From: Candidatus Melainabacteria bacterium 17Bon1m
GTDB lineage: Bacteria; Cyanobacteriota; Vampirovibrionia; Obscuribacterales; Obscuribacteraceae
DNA length: 64,000 bases
Direction: 5' to 3'
Assembly: GCA_032128875.1 (NCBI GenBank)
Contig: JAVLKG010000002.1
Span: 896,001 to 960,000 of the forward strand
Shown here: positions 1-8,701 of the stretch, in pieces
Layout: every line of letters starts with the position of its first letter
How positions within the stretch are numbered: position 1 is the first letter of the stretch
Notes under the pieces: model-generated
Told to the model about the DNA's origin: nothing
The model's database searches: none
What the model saw: only the letters and a program-made list of their open reading frames with translations
Translations under genes and position numbers: made by a program

Positions 1-369
1 CGCGATGAATTCTTTCGACTCTGAGATAAAGCGCTGACGTTGCGGTTTTGCCAGCCAGAGAGCCAGAATGCGACGTCTGTCGGTGCCTTTCTTGAGGGTC
101 GGAGGACGATCGCCGAGAAGGCGTTCGCGAATCATGCGGTTGCCTTCGCGATAGTAGCAATCGCCGATTTGGCAGCCAGTAACAACAACACCGTCGGCAC
201 CAGCCTTGATGGCATTTTCAATCATCAGTGGTTGAATCATGCCTGAGCAAGGGAATTTGACTACTTTCATGCCGGGCACTTCAGTGCAGCTGCCTGAATC
301 GTCAACGATGCCGCTTAAGTCGCAGGCGCGTTCGCAGATAAGTGTGATTACTTTCTTAGCATCAGACAT
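1..369 (-). CDS. MvhD/FlpD-like (methyl-viologen-reducing hydrogenase delta subunit) [2Fe-2S] protein, 3' end runs off the window
   Basis: Not in ORF track. Manual translation from ATG at 369, 5 nt after the cyt b #2 stop: MSDAKKVITLICERAC...VVKFPCSGMIQPLMIENAIKAGADGVVVTGCQIGDCYYREGN...GTDRRRILALWLAKPQRQRFISESKEFIA. Matches the MvhD pattern C...PCSG...GADGVxVxGCxxGDCxYxxGN. Confidence 0.85.
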   Translation of the reverse strand, partial: MSDAKKVITLICERACDLSGIVDDSGSCTEVPGMKVVKFPCSGMIQPLMIENAIKAGADGVVVTGCQIGDCYYREGNRMIRERLLGDRPPTLKKGTDRRRILALWLAKPQRQRFISESKEFIA

Positions 370-374
370 TGGTG

Positions 375-1553
375 TTACCCTTTCGCCTCCAGAAGAGCCT
401 TAATCTTCGCGTTCACTTCCGCATCCGGAAGATCTGGCAAATCGATTGCATCAAACGCGCAAGCGCCGACGCATACGCCGCAGCCTGAGCAGCGGAAATC
501 TTTTACTGTCGCCAACAATTTGAATCTGGAACCAGCTGGTGCAGGCACCATTTCAATCGCTTGGTACGGGCAGTCTTTGTAGCAGAGTGAGCAGCCTGTG
601 CACTTGTTAAGCACAACTTCAGCTGTTTCGATCGCTGGTTGTTTCGGAATCATCAACCACGGTGCAGCCGTGATTGCGACGGTGCCGAGAATCATCACTG
701 CCCAGTAACCCATGACCGGCATTTGGCTGAGCATGGCGTATGGGAACAAGAAGAACCAGTCGATGTCGAACGATGTCGGCTGTTGGTTGAGGTCAGCCAT
801 GCTGCCACTGCTCAACGGCCAGATGAATACGCAGACGAGCACCAATGCGGTCAAAATGTAGTTCACTGCCGGTGGTGGCGTGAGTACTGGTCTGGTCATG
901 CGCAGGTAGTGAACCCACAGACCGAAGAGCAGGAAGAATGAAAGACCGATGTGGATGAAAAGGAAGTTGGAGAGAGTCAGGTTTGTAATCTGATCTCCGT
1001 TCAAGAACCAGGTCTTGAGTCCAGGTCCAATTACCGGCAGTGCTTCGAAAGCGCTGGCAGTCATTCTTGTGAGCAAGAGCGAGCGGTCATCCCAAACCAG
1101 GTAGAAACCGGTTTGACCAATGAAGAGTACGAAGATTGCCAGAACAATACCGGAAACCCATTGGAGCCAGCGGTATTGACGGTAGCGATCTGTGAACCAT
1201 ACGCGCAGAGCGTGCAGCAAGATGGTGATAACCATCGCGTCGCCTGCATAACGGTGGATACCGCGGATGACACCACCAAAAGGAAGAGACTTGGTGATGT
1301 AATCAACTGAGGTCCAAGCGTTGGTCAGAAGCTTCGAGTTGTAAGCGTTGTCGATGGTCGGGATGTAGTATGCGAAAAGCAGCAGCCCGGAGAGGTACAG
1401 CACCCACAGGTAGTACTGGGGAAGAGCTCCGTGATAGTAGAACGGATTGTATTTACTGGTCATGAACGCGTTGATTGCGTTTTCAATGGCCAGCGTCAAA
1501 CCGTTGAAGGCTTTTAGCGGGTGATTATCGACAATCTTTTGCACTGGGGTCAT
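375..1553 (-). CDS. Cytochrome b (#2) fused to a C-terminal 2x[4Fe-4S] ferredoxin domain
   Basis: RGIHRYAGDAMVITILLH (H100/H114) and FIHIGLSFFLLFGLWVH (H201/H215) give four heme ligands. IDWF at the PEWY position. C-terminal CTGCSLCYKDCP and CSGCGVCVGACA. Confidence 0.9.
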   Translation of the reverse strand: MTPVQKIVDNHPLKAFNGLTLAIENAINAFMTSKYNPFYYHGALPQYYLWVLYLSGLLLFAYYIPTIDNAYNSKLLTNAWTSVDYITKSLPFGGVIRGIHRYAGDAMVITILLHALRVWFTDRYRQYRWLQWVSGIVLAIFVLFIGQTGFYLVWDDRSLLLTRMTASAFEALPVIGPGLKTWFLNGDQITNLTLSNFLFIHIGLSFFLLFGLWVHYLRMTRPVLTPPPAVNYILTALVLVCVFIWPLSSGSMADLNQQPTSFDIDWFFLFPYAMLSQMPVMGYWAVMILGTVAITAAPWLMIPKQPAIETAEVVLNKCTGCSLCYKDCPYQAIEMVPAPAGSRFKLLATVKDFRCSGCGVCVGACAFDAIDLPDLPDAEVNAKIKALLEAKG

Positions 1554-1589
1554 CCTCTTCTATGCGTCTTCGCTAAAACTTCTTGCTGC

Positions 1590-1973
1590 CTATTTCTTTA
1601 CCGGTAAAACTGTCTTCTCTTCAGCATCTTCTCTGCCGATAATCATGATGGCGATACCGCCAATTGTCAGAGCTACCCCCATAAAGAGAATGTAGCCATA
1701 GTCTCCGAGGCTGGCAGTCGACTTCGGATTTACCGAGACGCCTTTGCCTTGCAAATACTTCGTCAAATCTTCACCCAAACTAGGTGTGAGTGAATTGAAG
1801 AAACCAGCGATTGCGCCGTGCAGACCAATTCGTGAGGTCAGGTCGGTCAGCCAGTCAGGTGTAGTTCCGGTAAAACCTAACTCAGACCATGCCATAAGAA
1901 CACTGACGGCGACAACGGCGCCGGCGAATGCCAGGAGTATGATGCCCTTCGGTGAAAGTATGTACTTAATCAC
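1590..1973 (-). CDS. Small membrane protein in the respiratory operon
   Basis: 127 aa with N- and C-terminal hydrophobic helices; co-oriented and tightly spaced within the operon. Confidence 0.7.
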   Translation of the reverse strand: MIKYILSPKGIILLAFAGAVVAVSVLMAWSELGFTGTTPDWLTDLTSRIGLHGAIAGFFNSLTPSLGEDLTKYLQGKGVSVNPKSTASLGDYGYILFMGVALTIGGIAIMIIGREDAEEKTVLPVKK

Positions 1974-1985
1974 TATGAATTCCTT

Positions 1986-2357
1986 TTACCTGGTTCCGTT
2001 TCGTTCTGCGAGTTTTGCTTCGATTTTGTCGAACAATTTGACCTTGCGTACCAACTTCCCTGTCGACTTTTCTTCGATGTAGATCCAGTAGCCTTGGACT
2101 GCTAGAAGCAGCATGGTTAGTGTGGTACCGAAGAAGAGATAGGCACAAGGAATGAGACCCGGCTCTTTTTGAACTTCACGCCAACCCTCGAAAAACCAGG
2201 AGAGCGTGATTACAGTCAGAGTGAAAGCGAACAGCCTTAAGGGCAGTTTGACTTTCGTGGGCTTGACCAGGGCTTTGGTTTCCACAGCCACGCTAGCATC
2301 ACCGGTGGTGACGTTAGTGTTGATTGCGCGTGGGTCCTTTTTCCCGGTCAAGATCAT
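1986..2357 (-). CDS. Small two-TM membrane protein in the respiratory operon
   Basis: Start moved to ATG 2357 (MILTGKKDP) to avoid overlap with cyt b #1. Two hydrophobic segments. Confidence 0.7.
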   Translation of the reverse strand: MILTGKKDPRAINTNVTTGDASVAVETKALVKPTKVKLPLRLFAFTLTVITLSWFFEGWREVQKEPGLIPCAYLFFGTTLTMLLLAVQGYWIYIEEKSTGKLVRKVKLFDKIEAKLAERNGTR

Positions 2358-2364
2358 TCCCCGA

Positions 2365-4155
2365 TTAAGTTGATGCAGATGCCGGTTGAGCAGGTGCTGG
2401 TTTAGGAGCAGCCTGAGCACCAGACTTGAAGTTCCATACCATGTAGGCGCCTACGACTGCAAAGACAGCTCCTGCAATCATCCATGTCCAATCCCAGAAA
2501 GGAATATCTAGGGGATAGAAAACGCCTTTGGTGGTCGTTTCGATGTTCGACGCGCGATTCATTCTGTCGCAGAAAACGACATAGTCGTAAGCCCAGCGGT
2601 TGGTGACCAGATAGTCAACCATGCCCAAGTATTTGGGGTGATCCGGTGTAAATGTCGGGATCCAATTAACGACCCAGTCTACTGGTGACGTCATCTTGCA
2701 ATGTTCAAGAATCTGGTTGAATGCTGCATGAACTTCCGGACCGCCTTTGGCCACATAGTTGTCCTTGAGCCAATCTTGCCAGTCATTCTTATATGTAGAT
2801 GCGAAATACGTGGAGGTTGGTTGAACCTTTCGCATAGCTGCTTCGAGCTTGTCCGCTTCCGGAAGGAATGGACGCATCACACCGTAGAACCACTGTTGGA
2901 ACATGGGTCCGCGGAACATTTCCACTTTCGCCATGTAGTAATAGACGAATCCCCAGAATGCTTGCGAAGCACCGATGACTGCTATTACAAGCGCACCCTT
3001 CCATTGTTTTGCACGTTGGACTGCGTCTTTGTTTTGCCACATGAGCCAGAGCTGCAGACCCATACCTACGTTGACTGTGAGGTATGTGAAGGCTCTCCAA
3101 TACGGAGGATCGGTGTGGATGTTGGCGATGTTAGCGATGATGAGCAGTGAGAATACGATCCAGCTCACGAGAGCCATGATCACTACCCAGAATATGAATG
3201 GTCTCTTGTTGATGTCTTTCTCTGCGCCGGTCAGCCAGACATCCATGAATGGCAAGCCGACAACGATTAGAGGCAACACAATAGTGATTTCTGTTGCTAC
3301 GACAGGCTCCAGGTATTTGTACATTTGGTACAAGCCAAGGAAGTACCAGTCAGACAAAATCGGAAGCGGTGTGACGTCCGGATCTGACCGTTTACCTTGC
3401 GCAGCAGGAAGAACTATAGCTACAACAACCAACATCAGGGTGATGATGGTGCGCTTTGCCCAGCTAAGTGGAACGCGCTTATAAGCGTTTTTGTAGAAGT
3501 AGAGTTCTACAAAGATCAAAGGAATGAGAGAGAAAGCGAGGTGGATAGAGAAGAATCGTGTGATTGTCTCCTGCGTGATAGCCGCTCCGCCGCCCAGGAG
3601 AACTTCGGCTGTATTCCATCCCATGTGAATCGACTTTACGAGCGGCTGATAGAAGTCGCCCATGACCGGGAATTGGTCCATGTAAGTCGGGAATGTCGCG
3701 AATACCTTTGTCGCCCAAAACGCGCGCTGGTTCCAGATCAATAGATATCCAGTCAGACCGGAATACATTGATAGCAGAAGCGCTACAAGAGCGATTGCAA
3801 TGTTGAACTCTTTACCCGGTTTGTAATCGGCACAGATGAACATGCGATACATGCGCATCGTCGCCGCAATGATCATGGCGTCGGCACCGTACTTGTGCAT
3901 GCCCCGCATGAGACCGCCGAAAGGAATACCGTTCTGAATGTGGAGAATAGAATCAAATGCCTGCGCTTTCGTAGGTACGTACCACATGATGAGTACGCAG
4001 CCTGTGAACATAACGAGGAACCAGACCATGTAGAAGATTGGCCCTAGAGAATACCAAGGGTTTGTCTTCGCTTCCTCGCGGTGATGCTCATCGAATATAT
4101 CGATGTTGTTGATCCGCGTCTTTACCCAGTCTATGGTTGCATTTACCGCTGACAT
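2365..4155 (-). CDS. Cytochrome b (#1) of a Rieske/cytb complex, lacking heme bH ligands, with a long C-terminal extension
   Basis: RGMHKYG (H87), GYLLIWNQRAFWATKV, RFFSIH (H205), SDWY at the PEWY position. The second His positions are R101 and Y219. Confidence 0.9.
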   Translation of the reverse strand: MSAVNATIDWVKTRINNIDIFDEHHREEAKTNPWYSLGPIFYMVWFLVMFTGCVLIMWYVPTKAQAFDSILHIQNGIPFGGLMRGMHKYGADAMIIAATMRMYRMFICADYKPGKEFNIAIALVALLLSMYSGLTGYLLIWNQRAFWATKVFATFPTYMDQFPVMGDFYQPLVKSIHMGWNTAEVLLGGGAAITQETITRFFSIHLAFSLIPLIFVELYFYKNAYKRVPLSWAKRTIITLMLVVVAIVLPAAQGKRSDPDVTPLPILSDWYFLGLYQMYKYLEPVVATEITIVLPLIVVGLPFMDVWLTGAEKDINKRPFIFWVVIMALVSWIVFSLLIIANIANIHTDPPYWRAFTYLTVNVGMGLQLWLMWQNKDAVQRAKQWKGALVIAVIGASQAFWGFVYYYMAKVEMFRGPMFQQWFYGVMRPFLPEADKLEAAMRKVQPTSTYFASTYKNDWQDWLKDNYVAKGGPEVHAAFNQILEHCKMTSPVDWVVNWIPTFTPDHPKYLGMVDYLVTNRWAYDYVVFCDRMNRASNIETTTKGVFYPLDIPFWDWTWMIAGAVFAVVGAYMVWNFKSGAQAAPKPAPAQPASAST

Positions 4156-4172
4156 GTTATCGATTGACTCCC

Positions 4173-4736
4173 TCAGGCGATTGAACCGGCTTCCAAACCA
4201 ACGATCTTATACGCATTGCCCTCTTTCTTGAGGTCAAACTTACGCGGCGGGCGCGGCGCAGGCCCAGAAACTACTTTGCCGTTTTGGGCAATGTCGTAAA
4301 CGCTCAAGTGGCAAGGGCATGCAAAAACGGGACCTTGTGGTTTGAAGTTGTAACCCTTGGCACATTCCGAAGGGTCTTTGACAAAGTTGAACACACAACC
4401 AAGGTGCGGGCAAATGCGGCTGTAGGCGACCACATCACCGGACGGCAATTTGACAATGAATCCGGGGATTTCGCGGACTTCTTTACCTTCAGGGTTGTAC
4501 TCGACATATTTCTGCTTGAACATGAAGTCAATGCATGTCCACTCTGACGGGAAGTCCGAATCGCTGAAGGAAACGTCTTCTTCAGGTCCGGGTTGATCGG
4601 AAGGTCCAAAAACGTCCAGAGGCTTCAGCGTTGGACGCATGTACCTCAGCAACGGCGATATGACCAGACCAAACGTGGCGGCGAGCGGAATAGCTGCCAG
4701 AGTCTTCAGAATAATTCTTCTATTTGTGCCTTCCAT
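4173..4736 (-). CDS. Rieske [2Fe-2S] subunit of cytochrome bc complex
   Basis: CPHLGC and CPCHLS boxes, GPAPRP, twin-arginine leader TNRRIILK. Start set at ATG 4736. Confidence 0.92.
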   Translation of the reverse strand: MEGTNRRIILKTLAAIPLAATFGLVISPLLRYMRPTLKPLDVFGPSDQPGPEEDVSFSDSDFPSEWTCIDFMFKQKYVEYNPEGKEVREIPGFIVKLPSGDVVAYSRICPHLGCVFNFVKDPSECAKGYNFKPQGPVFACPCHLSVYDIAQNGKVVSGPAPRPPRKFDLKKEGNAYKIVGLEAGSIA

Positions 4737-4749
4737 TTTTCGAACTCCG

Positions 4750-5688
4750 TTACTTTGTCTCGCCCTGAGGCTTAGCTTCTTCGGGTTTAGCATCAGCGGG
4801 TTTGTCTTCCGCCGGCTTAGCATCTTTGGTCTTGGCGCCTTCTTTGGTGTTATCGATTGGAGCGCCTACCGTTGGCGAGCCTATATTTGCCTCGGCGATT
4901 TGTTTGTTGGTTGAGTGGAATGCACGCACGTAGGCTACGAGCTTCCAAATATAAGCCTCATCGAATTTAACTTCTTTGGCTTTGTCCTCCTTGCCGAGGA
5001 AATTGGGCATCCCTTCCCACTTTATGCCATTTGCGATGTGATCCCATAGGATATCGTCGGTTCTGTCGTAAAAACGCTTATAGTTTTGGAAGTTGGCTGG
5101 GTTGGGCTCGAGTACGTTGTACTTGTTGAGCGGACCGTCGCCATAACCCTTAGGACCGTGACAGACTGCGCAATTCGCGCCGTATACAGGGGTGACTTTG
5201 GAGTATTCCTTCGCATCCAAAAGCGGTGCTGAGAGAGAGCGAACGTAATAAACAAGGTTCCAAGTCTTCTGGCTGGAGATGTCAGCCAAGGTCGTTGGGT
5301 GCTTGACGCCGTCTTTGCCGAATGCGAGGAACATATATTGATCGATCGGCTTTTGTTTGTGACCGTACTCAGGCGAGGTGAGGTCGATTGCCGATTTGCC
5401 GCTGACGCCTTTTCCGCCCGTGCCGTGGCACTCAGCGCAAGAAAGCTTTTCATAGACTACTTTGCCGTCCGGCTCGGATGGTTTGTCATCCGGGTAAATG
5501 GCCTCTCTTCCACCCTTGGTTACGTCTTTGGAAACCAGTTGTGAATCGTCACCTTTGACGGTGACTTGATTGCCGCATCCTGTAACTAGTGTCACCGCAG
5601 GTAACACCACTAGCAAAAGTGCCAGCAAGGATGTCGACAACCCGGCGAATGTTTCAAACGTAAAAACTGGTTTTTTGGAACGTGTCAT
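4750..5688 (-). CDS. Diheme cytochrome c, probable lipoprotein
   Basis: CAECH and CAVCH heme motifs, GMP axial Met in the second domain, lipobox-like VTG-C after a hydrophobic stretch. Confidence 0.85.
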   Translation of the reverse strand: MTRSKKPVFTFETFAGLSTSLLALLLVVLPAVTLVTGCGNQVTVKGDDSQLVSKDVTKGGREAIYPDDKPSEPDGKVVYEKLSCAECHGTGGKGVSGKSAIDLTSPEYGHKQKPIDQYMFLAFGKDGVKHPTTLADISSQKTWNLVYYVRSLSAPLLDAKEYSKVTPVYGANCAVCHGPKGYGDGPLNKYNVLEPNPANFQNYKRFYDRTDDILWDHIANGIKWEGMPNFLGKEDKAKEVKFDEAYIWKLVAYVRAFHSTNKQIAEANIGSPTVGAPIDNTKEGAKTKDAKPAEDKPADAKPEEAKPQGETK

Positions 5689-5695
5689 AACTCAC

Positions 5696-5941
5696 TCAGT
5701 AACCGAAGAAAGGAATCCAGGAGAACATTGCCCAAAGAACAATGAAGAAGAAGCACACAATGAGAAACAGGGGAGGCGGACCTTCACCAATACGGTATTC
5801 AGAAACTACTTCATAATGTTCATCTGCCGAGGGCGCGGCTGCGGCAGCTTTAGCAACTGCTGCGGGTTTGGCGGCAGGTTTTTCTTCAGCAGATTTCTCC
5901 GCCTTAACCTCGTCCCCGTTGTTTTTCACTTCTTCAGCCAT
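5696..5941 (-). CDS. Small single-TM protein resembling the CcoP N-terminal anchor
   Basis: EYRIGEGPPPLFLIVCFFFIVLWAMFSW resembles the CcoP ExDNPLPxW...IxWA helix; sits between ccoS and the cyt c gene. Confidence 0.55.
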   Translation of the reverse strand: MAEEVKNNGDEVKAEKSAEEKPAAKPAAVAKAAAAAPSADEHYEVVSEYRIGEGPPPLFLIVCFFFIVLWAMFSWIPFFGY

Positions 5942-5967
5942 TTCCTACCTCTTTGTGCGCAAATTTT

Positions 5968-6216
5968 TTACTTGTTGGCCGTCGATGCACTGAGCCTGAT
6001 CCTTTCAACTGCTGCCAGCGCTTTTTGGCCAGTAGTGTTGTCGTCGCCGTCGTCAAGCATGTCGAACTTTACGTCCTCCATGTTTTCAAACTCACCGTTT
6101 TTGAAGGCCCACAAAATTGCTGCAATAGCCATTACAAAAAACAGGATGCAAATGAAGAAGGCGACGTATATTCCCGAGCTCAGACCTTGCTGGTTGAGAA
6201 TGCAATTAGGACACAT
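5968..6216 (-). CDS. ccoS: cbb3-type oxidase assembly protein CcoS
   Basis: TM helix followed by LWAFKNGEFENMEDVKFDMLDD, matching the CcoS/FixS WAxxxGQFxD pattern. Confidence 0.8.
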   Translation of the reverse strand: MCPNCILNQQGLSSGIYVAFFICILFFVMAIAAILWAFKNGEFENMEDVKFDMLDDGDDNTTGQKALAAVERIRLSASTANK

Positions 6217-7295
6217 TAGTGGCCTCCTTCTTTTGTGGACGTGCCGCTGGTTGTGGTACCAGTACTGGTGCCTTCAGGAGATGAAGGTGTTGAAGGTTGC
6301 GGCATTTTGTGTTCGGATGGGCTCATGTTGTCACCTTCCGCCTGATGTCCGTGTCCGCCGTGGTGAGGTTCGTACTGCTGGTTAGACAACTTAGGCAGAT
6401 GGATATCTTCAACTTTGTTGATCTGACCGATACTGTTGATAGTTACCTCTTGGTCTTGAGGGATCGTCTTCAAGTATGCAACCAGGTACCAGCGTTGCTC
6501 TTCGGTAAGCGTTTCGGCCCAACGCGGCATCCGCGTTCCTACAATACCTTCTGAGATTCTGTAGAACCAGAATTCGTCGGAGTATTGCTTGTAGTATGGG
6601 CGGCTGAAATTTGGCGGTTTCTTTTCTAGAGAAAGTGAATTCGGACCTTCTCCGTAGCCGTTCAAACCGTGGCAAACAGCACAGTTCTGCGTATAAATAC
6701 CTCTGCCAGCATTAGCGTTGGCACTGGCATTGGTGTCAACTGTTTTACGGTTGTGCAATGCCACACCGGCTGGTGTAGTAGTTCTGTATTCGTCAGGAGC
6801 TTCGACGAATTCTTTCACCTGGCGACCGTTGCCCAAGCACTGTACATACGCGACCAGGTCGTTCATGTCCCGCTCGGACAGGTAGCTGAAGCTAGGCATG
6901 ATCGAGCCGGGTTTGACAGCGCGTGGTTGGATCAAGTGAGCTTTCTGCCACTCTGAAGCCATGCGTCCGCCTTCATTGGTCAAGTCCGGACCGGTACGGG
7001 CAGTGCCCAATTGGTGCGGTGTTTCCCAGATGAAGTCGCCCGCTTTGACGAGTGGACCATAACCTCTGTCTTGCAGACGGGTGAATTGAGTATGGCAATA
7101 GAAGCAGCCTTCCCTTACATATATTTTCCTTCCGCGAGCTGCATCTGCGACATTGGAAGCGACTTTGGTGTAGTCGTTGCTTCTGTGCTCTTTATCCGTT
7201 GGATTGAACAGCACCATCGGCAGAAGAACCGTGGAGAAAATGATGATGAAGAAAGTGGTGACGATACCGATTGCACCTAAACGATAGCTGTGCAT
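6216..7295 (-). CDS. ccoO: cbb3-type oxidase subunit II fused to a second cytochrome c domain
   Basis: GRKIYVREGCFYCHTQ, RTGPDL, PGSIMPSF (CcoO motifs); second heme CAVCH with RMP; His-rich tail. Confidence 0.9.
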   Translation of the reverse strand: MHSYRLGAIGIVTTFFIIIFSTVLLPMVLFNPTDKEHRSNDYTKVASNVADAARGRKIYVREGCFYCHTQFTRLQDRGYGPLVKAGDFIWETPHQLGTARTGPDLTNEGGRMASEWQKAHLIQPRAVKPGSIMPSFSYLSERDMNDLVAYVQCLGNGRQVKEFVEAPDEYRTTTPAGVALHNRKTVDTNASANANAGRGIYTQNCAVCHGLNGYGEGPNSLSLEKKPPNFSRPYYKQYSDEFWFYRISEGIVGTRMPRWAETLTEEQRWYLVAYLKTIPQDQEVTINSIGQINKVEDIHLPKLSNQQYEPHHGGHGHQAEGDNMSPSEHKMPQPSTPSSPEGTSTGTTTSGTSTKEGGH

Positions 7296-8701
7296 TACGC
7301 TTTCACCTCCGCTGCCTTAGCTGCAGGTGCAACTGATGCGGCAGGTTTTGTGTAAAGCGTCTTCCAGACGTTGTACGCAAACAGAAGTTGTCCCAAGACA
7401 ATCATGATTCCACTAATGCCTCTAAAGAACCAATAAGGTCTGATCTGCAATCCCCACTGATCGACAGGCATACCCATAGCCCAGCCAGCTGATTGAATCA
7501 AACCGGCAATGGTGAGCGATGTCATCATCAGGAGGAAGCCCAGGAATTTCAGCCAGTAGTGAGCGCGGATCAAACCTTGGCTGTAAAACTCTCTTCCGGT
7601 CAATTTCGGCAACGAATAATAAATTGCCGAAGTGAGGATAAAGGAGAAGGTTCCCAGAAGAGCAAGGTGGGCATGGCCTACAACCCATTGGGTGAAGTGT
7701 AAGTACCAGTTGACCCAGCGTGTCGCCTGGAACGGACCCTGTATGCAGGTGACCAGATAGAACATGCAGGATGTCACTGCAAAACGCAGTGGCAAATCGG
7801 TGACTGCCTGCCCCCAGCGACCCTTCATTGTCATGAAGAAGTTCGTCAATACGGTGAGTACAGGAACTAAAAGGAATATCGATGAAATGATTGCAATCGC
7901 TTTGAGCCATTCCGGTACAGGCGATTGGGTGATGTGGTGAGTACCGGTCGGAGCATAGAACAGAGCGATTCCCCAGAAACCCAACATTGACAAGCCATGG
8001 CTGTAGAGTGGCGCTTGGGTCAATCTGGGAAGCAGGTAATACATCATGCCTACGCCGACTGTGGTGAACCACATGCCCAGAATGTTGTGTCCGTAGAACC
8101 AACCGACGATCGCGTCGTTGAGCCCGGGCAAGGCAACGAAAGTTCTCTGTCCGATGATCCACACTAGCGGGAACCAGAACAGAGAACCGAGGAAATACCA
8201 GAGAGTCACATACAGTTTTTTGACTCTTCTGTTGAGGATGGTCATGTAGATGTTCAGCGCTACAGACACCAGAGCGACTGCTACGAGTACGTCGAGGATC
8301 GCTCCGAGTTCCGCATATTCCCGACCTTCGGTGTTGCCATTGAGCAGAGTGCAGAAGGCGGCGACAATCACCAGGTTCCAGGCCCACATGGTCATGTTCC
8401 CGAGCCTCTCTGACCAAAGCTTGGTCTTACAGAGATTTGGAACCATGTAGAAGATGGAGCCTACATATCCCATCGATAGCCAACCTACCGCTACAGCGTT
8501 GACGTGGAACATTCGCATATGCGGAAATGCCAACTGCGGCACGTTTTTAACCAGGTCGGGCATGGAAAACTCCAACCCGCCGATCATTCCTGCCCCCATG
8601 CCCCACAGTGACCACCACAGAGCGGATAGGAAGAAATTACGACTGGCGCTGCCCTCTTTATTGCTGAAAAGCTTGTCTGCAACAGAACTCAACTTGGACA
8701 C
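7295..8701 (-). CDS. ccoN: C-family (cbb3) heme-copper oxidase subunit I
   Basis: MRMFHVNAV, WFYGHNILG, FYAPTGTHH, WVVGHAH, GREYAE; about 12 TM helices. Confidence 0.93.
   Translation of the reverse strand: MSKLSSVADKLFSNKEGSASRNFFLSALWWSLWGMGAGMIGGLEFSMPDLVKNVPQLAFPHMRMFHVNAVAVGWLSMGYVGSIFYMVPNLCKTKLWSERLGNMTMWAWNLVIVAAFCTLLNGNTEGREYAELGAILDVLVAVALVSVALNIYMTILNRRVKKLYVTLWYFLGSLFWFPLVWIIGQRTFVALPGLNDAIVGWFYGHNILGMWFTTVGVGMMYYLLPRLTQAPLYSHGLSMLGFWGIALFYAPTGTHHITQSPVPEWLKAIAIISSIFLLVPVLTVLTNFFMTMKGRWGQAVTDLPLRFAVTSCMFYLVTCIQGPFQATRWVNWYLHFTQWVVGHAHLALLGTFSFILTSAIYYSLPKLTGREFYSQGLIRAHYWLKFLGFLLMMTSLTIAGLIQSAGWAMGMPVDQWGLQIRPYWFFRGISGIMIVLGQLLFAYNVWKTLYTKPAASVAPAAKAAEVKA

Follow-up and report, generated by a model that had tools for sequence, protein, structure and literature searches.

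Our analysis of a 64,000-nucleotide stretch of DNA from Candidatus Melainabacteria bacterium 17Bon1m (contig JAVLKG010000002.1, positions 896,001 to 960,000; in the following, the window) reveals two cytochromes b, here called #1 and #2, which complement each other and are encoded together with a haem-copper oxidase. Their operon is a single co-directional unit on the minus strand (window 1-8701) that leads from a cbb3 oxidase via cytochromes c, a Rieske protein, #1, two small proteins (pX, p127) and #2 to a FlpD/MvhD-like protein. #1 keeps a conserved quinol oxidation (Qo) site and only the His pair for haem bL; #2 keeps all four haem-ligand His residues, has relaxed Qo loops and ends in a domain for two [4Fe-4S] clusters. 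From gene content, the ligand patterns and their conservation, the co-occurrence of both genes and their membership of separate families, we infer that #1 and #2 may heterodimerise as the asymmetric core of a complex III-IV assembly, along a path whose outward-to-inward direction would deliver one of the two quinol electrons to a cytoplasmic acceptor (exit-type bifurcation). We put the probability of this reading at roughly 45%.

Ligand patterns and conservation of the two cytochromes b

Among solved structures #1 matches cytochrome b6 best (phmmer; PDB 6rqf_I, E 4.1e-22), and in this alignment H87 and H205 coincide with the first His residues of helices B and D, with R101 and Y219 taking the places of the second ones. 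The loss of the bH ligands, which the earlier note had read from the window, is conserved: in our ortholog sample (the window plus 20 related loci drawn from eight families of the class) the +14 position of helix B is Arg in 15 and Lys in six sequences, helix D has Tyr at +14 (Y219) and Glu at +12 (E217) in 21/21, and not one #1 sequence retains the bH histidines or shows the two His pairs that mark bc1 and b6f complexes. The alternation of Arg and Lys in helix B makes it unlikely that this position ligates haem, and no other His, Met or Cys on the n-side (the membrane's negative side) is conserved among the invariant columns of #1. Judged by its ligands, #1 is best read as a one-haem (bL) protein with a bH pocket that may be occupied by a charged pair; having no bH, it would leave bL with no onward carrier inside #1 or inside a #1 homodimer.

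The Qo site of #1 is well kept. Its cd stretch (Y131-K150, except T135) and its ef stretch (P259-Q277, except D260 and G274) are invariant in 19/19 sequences, the latter including SDWY, a PEWY-type motif with S for P and D for E, and the translation also holds GYLLIWNQRAFWATKV. Immediately upstream of #1 lies the gene of the Rieske protein, whose boxes CPHLGC and CPCHLS are found in the window and in 20/20 related loci. A separate feature of #1 is its C-terminal extension (residues 386-596, 211 residues; window 2365-3000, minus strand), which consists of a hydrophilic stretch of about 150 residues and a final hydrophobic helix and has no Pfam match. This extension is confined to the window's own order, in which #1 measures 590-643 residues as opposed to 441-522 in the other families.

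In #2, all four haem-ligand His residues (H100/H114 and H201/H215, spaced +14/+14) are present in 19/19 sequences; the +14 spacing in helix D is common to #1 and #2 and differs from the +15 of a canonical cytochrome b encoded elsewhere in the genome (see below). The cluster Cys residues at the C-terminus are C318/321/324/328 and C355/358/361/365. Because #2 has six transmembrane helices (five by hydropathy, helix B by homology), its Fe-S domain and FlpD are placed on the cytoplasmic side. The earlier note's account of a more degenerate Qo region in #2 (motifs WDDRSLLL and IDWF) needs one correction: both the cd and ef loops are relaxed, but W154-D155 and D265-W266 at the core of this region are invariant, so the site on the p-side (the membrane's positive side) is relaxed rather than erased. 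As the note had also said, neither protein has the Cys of haem cn in b6f: the Cys of 'FYCLGG' in b6 (6rqf_I) aligns with S36 of #1 (motif YSLG), and its position is held in #2 by H41 (motif YYHG), which is invariant in 19/19 sequences and mostly Leu in the wider family of #2. The open reading frames (ORFs), the ligand numbering and the motifs that the note gave for both proteins all hold. We further observed that #2 carries, at the end of helix A, the motif YxPT of Rieske-type cytochromes b, which the wider family of #2 does not have.

The division of labour that these patterns suggest recurs when conservation is scored as the mean frequency of the commonest residue per region. #1 scores highest in its Qo loops (ef 0.88, cd 0.72) and #2 in n-side elements and the Fe-S domain (0.75-0.82). 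#2 is better conserved than its wider family everywhere but in cd, ef and helices E and F; even though the 19 #2 sequences are more alike overall (pairwise identity 51% versus 41% for the family), its Qo loops fall below the family (cd 0.54 vs 0.58, ef 0.46 vs 0.56). Sequence conservation thus supports a division of labour with Qo chemistry probably at #1 and n-side and Fe-S functions at #2, much as the earlier note had proposed.

Ancestry, co-occurrence and possible pairing of #1 and #2

In contrast to a picture of two diverged copies of one cytochrome b, we find that the two proteins are not recent paralogs. In a quickly computed maximum-likelihood tree from helices A-D (111 rows, LG+G4, long branches flagged), a split with 100% support in the Shimodaira-Hasegawa-like approximate likelihood-ratio test (SH-aLRT) separates #1, b6 and other Rieske-type cytochromes b from #2 and a family of fused proteins, and on this split a recent duplication was rejected. 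Equally new is the origin of #2 in a large family of fusions between cytochrome b, two [4Fe-4S] clusters and FlpD: searched with #2 (HMMER), 1.84 billion representatives gave 4194 matches, 301 of them at E <= 1e-30 and many 480-790 residues long. Twelve of 15 sampled relatives join cytochrome b, a 4Fe-4S dicluster and FlpD in a single chain, which makes FlpD a physical partner of #2-type proteins; one sampled relative has an N-terminal SCO1 domain. All full-length members, with the exception of two Cys-less paralogs, keep the four His, the W-D and D-W pairs and the eight Cys, and #2 is identical to the full-length family rows in all 16 such columns. Every non-melainabacterial member also has a 'domain X' of about 200 residues, fused or encoded by the next gene; in 23 melainabacterial loci we found no homolog of it (best E-value 0.033), and the next gene there is FlpD. 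Going by these sequences, the operon joins a Rieske-type cytochrome b with a recruited, oxidase-associated module.

FlpD, the next link of the chain, and pX were both missing from the earlier note. FlpD follows #2 directly in 18/18 loci with the operon and in both loci where #2 and FlpD stand apart from it (see below). The complete gene, which the window cuts, codes for 134 residues (L004 11965-12369, minus strand) and scores 67.3 bits against PF02662 (curated cut-off 22.3); C12, C41, C66 and C71 fit, matched by eye, the motifs of four Cys residues that never vary among the fused relatives. The gene is single-copy, with no second FlpD found in the source genome (7.55 Mb, 93% complete, which is the scope of all genome-wide negatives here).

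Across 401 genomes of the class, orthologs of #1 (E <= 1e-60) occur in 153 and orthologs of #2 in 165, in the same eight of 12 families. Numbers run in parallel within families (#1 vs #2: 92 vs 91 of 103 genomes in f1, 10 vs 11 of 12 in f3, 17 vs 23 of 25 in f45), and neither gene was found in families f2 (0/189), f41, f44 and f48. The lower counts of #1 in f42 and f45 are probably an effect of the strict threshold on a long query. The order CcoN ... Rieske-#1-(small ORF)-#2-FlpD is retained in 18 of the 20 related loci, and in 20/20 both cytochromes b are present in the same genome. The remaining two have #2 and FlpD jointly on a separate contig of the same genome, away from the oxidase operon, and the neighbouring ORFs in these two genomes are housekeeping genes or have no Pfam match, with no cytoplasmic partner among them.

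Whether #1 and #2 pair was approached by modelling #1 (residues 1-380) with #2 and three haems next to three controls. The model reached an interaction prediction score from aligned errors (ipSAE) of 0.75 versus 0.01 for the best control (n=3); 116 of 157 solved complexes and two of 215 mismatched pairs attained that mark. Model runs had at least 92% of contacts in common, with a partner pLDDT (predicted local distance difference test) of at least 75. The modelled interface sets helices A (49-69) and D (195-224) of #1 against helices D (185-225) and A (50-70) of #2, i.e. it is the canonical helix A/D dimer face of cytochromes b, used reciprocally. The heterodimer put forward in the earlier note can thus be modelled through the canonical interface and passes its controls. 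Because cytochrome b homodimers have already been solved, such a pass speaks for likeness and geometric feasibility rather than binding, and the model, which ranks no heterodimer over homodimers, may merely echo the known structures.

Other observations, too, weigh against the pairing of #1 and #2. In helices A and D, conservation is no higher at the predicted interface than away from it (0.71 vs 0.73 for #2, 0.71 vs 0.72 for #1), and positions that are conserved but different number one at the interface versus one outside it, which renders interface conservation uninformative. A #1-#2 fusion was not seen in the 120 best near-length matches (577-654 residues plus one fragment of 385), nor among longer proteins, the latter being weak evidence by the tool's own note. 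Since the two families separated anciently, an inherited common interface cannot be assumed either. The strongest case for pairing is a functional one, namely that bL of #1 would otherwise have no exit, and taking both sides together we consider a #1:#2 heterodimer, irrespective of the direction of electron flow, to be the best reading and fairly probable.

Electron path, direction and rival readings

In the mechanism we favour, #1 would bind the Rieske protein and contribute the only well-kept Qo site and its sole haem bL, and #2 would add haems bL and bH as well as a wire of two [4Fe-4S] clusters in the cytoplasm, extended by FlpD/MvhD (a [2Fe-2S] protein by family), with both cytochromes docked via their canonical helix A/D faces. 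Quinol, probably menaquinol, would be oxidised at Qo of #1. One electron would pass on through the Rieske protein and, by way of the di-haem cytochrome c, reach the cbb3 oxidase and O2, and the other might cross from bL(#1) to bL(#2) and move on through bH(#2), the two [4Fe-4S] clusters and FlpD to a cytoplasmic acceptor at the level of ferredoxin.

As for direction, the genome holds two MqnA/D-family matches of the futalosine menaquinone pathway, a route also reported for the lineage in passages of a preprint (bioRxiv 10.1101/2024.07.27.605408). The operon Rieske has Ser after CPCHL in 21/21 sequences, followed by an aromatic residue (Tyr in 12, Phe in nine), and Gly takes the place of this Ser in the genome's canonical Rieske; 'SY' is given as a high-potential Rieske signature in the same preprint. 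For anammox bacteria, parts of PMC12954380 argue that a high Rieske potential together with menaquinol lowers haem bP enough to serve a low-potential acceptor in the cytoplasm. Menaquinone, the Ser signature and this argument combined would favour the exit direction. On the other side of the balance, the operon itself codes for no cytoplasmic acceptor, a NuoF-like gene (Complex1_51K match) was not found in the genome, and since transfer from the p-side to the n-side opposes the membrane potential, an exit at ferredoxin level is demanding. #2 may, moreover, still own a p-side site, given that its W-D and D-W pairs are kept. The most far-reaching version, in which an obligate natural heterodimer with bL-to-bL transfer as its sole route uses the pull of O2 to bifurcate quinol electrons to a ferredoxin-level reductant, by means of a #2 recruited from a widespread, uncharacterised family whose modules work for haem-copper oxidases in many other phyla too, is more speculative and in our eyes doubtful.

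The best-surviving rival sees #2 and FlpD as a self-standing and probably homodimeric module through which the cytoplasm or the quinone pool is connected with the haem-copper oxidase, with Rieske and #1 working apart and #2 not handling the bL electron of #1. It draws on the size of the #2 family and on a scan of species genomes, which gave 75 loci of this family in other phyla (Nitrospirota, Nitrospinota, metagenome-assembled genomes (MAGs) of 'Deltaproteobacteria', Steroidobacteraceae, Burkholderiaceae, Calditrichota, Planctomycetota, Rhodothermales and Hydrothermarchaeota). None of the 75 has a #1-like gene, and a Rieske gene lies near only two, with a four-His cytochrome b and a few kb off. 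Such modules evidently function without a Rieske cytochrome b, a point that counts against our asymmetric complex and keeps this rival alive. The neighbours of seven of the loci, chosen by us and not at random, were scanned, and a COX1-type haem-copper oxidase adjoins six of them, often with COX2-like and SCO1 genes. That #2 retains all family-invariant residues, and that #2 and FlpD sit on a contig other than that of the oxidase operon in two melainabacterial genomes, fits this picture as well. What it leaves unexplained is why a #1 with only one haem is conserved if the second quinol electron has no way out, and it sits uneasily with p-side loops of #2 that are relaxed relative to the family, with the lack of the domain X that every other member has and with the presence of #1 and #2 in the same families of the class. 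On balance we consider separate modules unlikely.

Alternatively, the same heterodimer could retain a Q-cycle: bH(#2) would pass electrons to quinone in a pocket on the n-side, and reduced ferredoxin would feed in through the Fe-S/FlpD arm. A ferredoxin route into the n-side of b6f has been proposed and is comparable to such an arm. H41 of #2, at the haem cn Cys position by the n-side quinone pocket, would suit this option, as would the n-side being the best-conserved membrane part of #2. In bc1 the quinone reduction (Qi) site has a His at +5 past the bH ligand and Asp/Lys at the start of helix E; by eye we could not see these residues in the #2 sequence. The absence of a NuoF-like gene from the genome sequence, mentioned above, agrees with an input arm, and passages of PMC6349859 describe a melainabacterial complex I without NuoEFG that is possibly fed by ferredoxin, which would make ferredoxin oxidation by the chain a need. 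All in all, a Q-cycle of this kind seems less probable still than separate modules. As for #1 being an ordinary two-haem cytochrome b of a normal homodimeric complex III with bH on non-His ligands, Tyr and Lys can in principle ligate haem and Y219 and E217 are invariant, but Arg, the commoner residue in helix B, is not a haem ligand and no other conserved n-side His, Met or Cys offers itself, so this option appears highly improbable.

Operon context and comparison with known systems

Gene families were assigned by Pfam matches to the ORFs of the window (Table 1), and a COX1-family CcoN together with a FixO-type CcoO identifies the oxidase as cbb3-type.

Table 1. Genes of the complex III-IV operon in the window, in order of transcription.
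Feature	Position	Strand	Basis
CcoN, catalytic subunit of cbb3-type (C-family) haem-copper oxidase, 468 aa	7295..8701	-	Pfam COX1 4.1e-80; ortholog in 20/20 related loci
CcoO fused with a CcoP-like cytochrome c domain, 359 aa	6216..7295	-	Pfam FixO 9.4e-31, Cytochrome_CBB3, Cytochrom_C
Small FixS/CcoS-like membrane protein, 82 aa	5968..6216	-	Pfam FixS 1.1e-6; one hydrophobic helix; BLAST 19/20 loci (not L077)
p81, small protein with a single transmembrane helix, 81 aa	5696..5941	-	No Pfam match; BLAST 19/20 loci (not L081); one helix
Di-haem cytochrome c, 312 aa	4750..5688	-	Two Pfam Cytochrome_CBB3/Cytochrom_C stretches; CAECH and CAVCH in translation
Rieske [2Fe-2S] protein	4173..4823 (longest ORF)	-	Pfam Rieske 7.3e-10; boxes CPHLGC, CPCHLSVY
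Cytochrome b #1, 596 aa	2365..4155	-	Rieske-type, Qo conserved, bL His pair only; Pfam Cytochrome_B 6.2e-22
pX, small protein with two transmembrane helices, directly downstream of #1	1986..2357	-	Start 2357 is the first ATG past the #1 stop (our choice)
p127, protein with two transmembrane helices	1590..1973	-	No Pfam match; two helices; BLAST only L081, L083, L084 of 20 loci
Cytochrome b #2, 392 aa, C-terminal 2x[4Fe-4S] domain	375..1553	-	Pfam Cytochrome_B 6e-23; 4Fe-4S dicluster models at residues 310-369
FlpD/MvhD-like protein, truncated by window edge	1..369	-	Pfam FlpD 1.6e-18

The true start of the Rieske protein is likely later than that of the longest ORF, near 4736 and ahead of an RR motif, and the di-haem cytochrome c is probably a lipoprotein. 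pX, which begins a few bases past the #1 stop, has two hydrophobic helices and no Pfam match; a counterpart stands at the same position in 18/20 loci (phmmer, E <= 0.011), with none in L076 or L078, and pX is probably an additional subunit of the complex. It shows the recurring pattern 'LSxFFE ... Y(D/I)SY..E(K/E)'. p127 is, among the 20 loci compared, confined to the window's own order. Elsewhere in the genome (contig C1, L005 5931-7529, plus strand) a third, canonical pair of Rieske (167 aa) and cytochrome b (360 aa) is encoded. This cytochrome b has four His and PEWY, and its helix D spacing is +15 as in b6. Large membrane proteins stand on either side of the pair, and one of them (464 aa) carries CxxCH at its C-terminus.

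In other phyla the #2 family shows features of its own. Tandem paralogs occur in 14 of the 75 loci; in L093 two #2-family paralogs have a NuoF-like flavoprotein between them, and in L092 a CcoN-CcoO-CcoP fusion follows. Many of the 'Deltaproteobacteria' MAG loci (L105-L126; e.g. L107 11271-13469) encode, just downstream of the fused cytochrome b and domain X, a methyl-accepting chemotaxis protein that combines a Tll0287-like sensor domain with a single CxxCH motif and may belong to the module as its sensor for redox or O2 taxis. The literature we searched holds no text on the function of the cytochrome b-FeS-FlpD family, its sole trace being a domain line in an appendix table (PMC8756737). The operon gives a first functional handle on this large family.

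That aerobic Melainabacteria and Obscuribacter have genes for a C-family oxidase and complex III (petB- and petC-like) in one locus is described in passages of PMC6349859 and echoed in part of a preprint (bioRxiv 10.1101/531145), both citing Soo et al. The passages on this melainabacterial complex III-IV make no mention of haem-ligand loss, an Fe-S fusion, FlpD or a heterodimer. Likewise, in the literature that we searched (main texts, outside Soo et al., Science 2017), haem loss, the Fe-S/FlpD arm and the heterodimer are not described. The host is a non-photosynthetic relative of oxygenic cyanobacteria, and the operon bears on how aerobic respiration was assembled in their sister lineage.

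Compared with b6f and bc1 complexes, #1 shares the cytochrome b fold, a PEWY-like ef loop (SDWY) and a partner with Rieske boxes; it differs by its one His pair, and both #1 and #2 depart from b6f by the missing haem cn Cys and the +14 spacing in helix D. With the fused family #2 shares the four His, W-D, D-W and the eight Cys, and FlpD corresponds to the next domain of the fusions, whereas in the window FlpD is a separate gene, domain X was not found and Rieske and #1 are added. A further parallel is offered by the Rieske/cytochrome b complexes of the anammox bacterium Kuenenia that come with NAD(P) oxidoreductase subunits and for which passages of PMC12954380 propose that the low-potential electron goes to a cytoplasmic acceptor rather than to the n-side quinone site (Qn). 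Likeness lies in the combination of low-potential quinone and high Rieske potential that the same passages describe. The window operon, on the other hand, has no NAD(P)-binding subunit that we could find, nor does the genome have a Complex1_51K match, and the anammox accounts, as far as these passages go, mention neither a mono-haem cytochrome b nor one of a second family. If the Fe-S/MvhD arm is an exit, the operon would stand beside the proposed anammox complexes as an example of bifurcation from quinol to an acceptor in the cytoplasm, and would be the first such case linked to O2 respiration.

For the inter-haem step, the direct laboratory counterparts are engineered bc1 complexes of Rhodobacter (B-B and BS-B fusions). 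According to passages of PMC4330944, cross-inactivated dimers with G158W (Qo) in one half and H212N (bH ligand) in the other still turn over, using millisecond transfer from bL to bL. #1 resembles the half without bH, its Y219 standing at the position of the helix D ligand that H212N removes, and #2 the half with impaired Qo. The engineered halves, however, derive from one protein by laboratory mutation and keep a normal Qi site, whereas #1 and #2 are natural proteins of different families whose n-side ends in Fe-S clusters. Electron crossing between bL haems in normal complex III catalysis has been argued mainly from engineered mutants; if a Qo-competent partner without bH and a Qo-relaxed partner with bH are indeed fixed in a lineage, they would offer a natural test case for this transfer. 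By this analogy, #1 and #2 together resemble a naturally occurring version of these cross-inactivated bc1 dimers.

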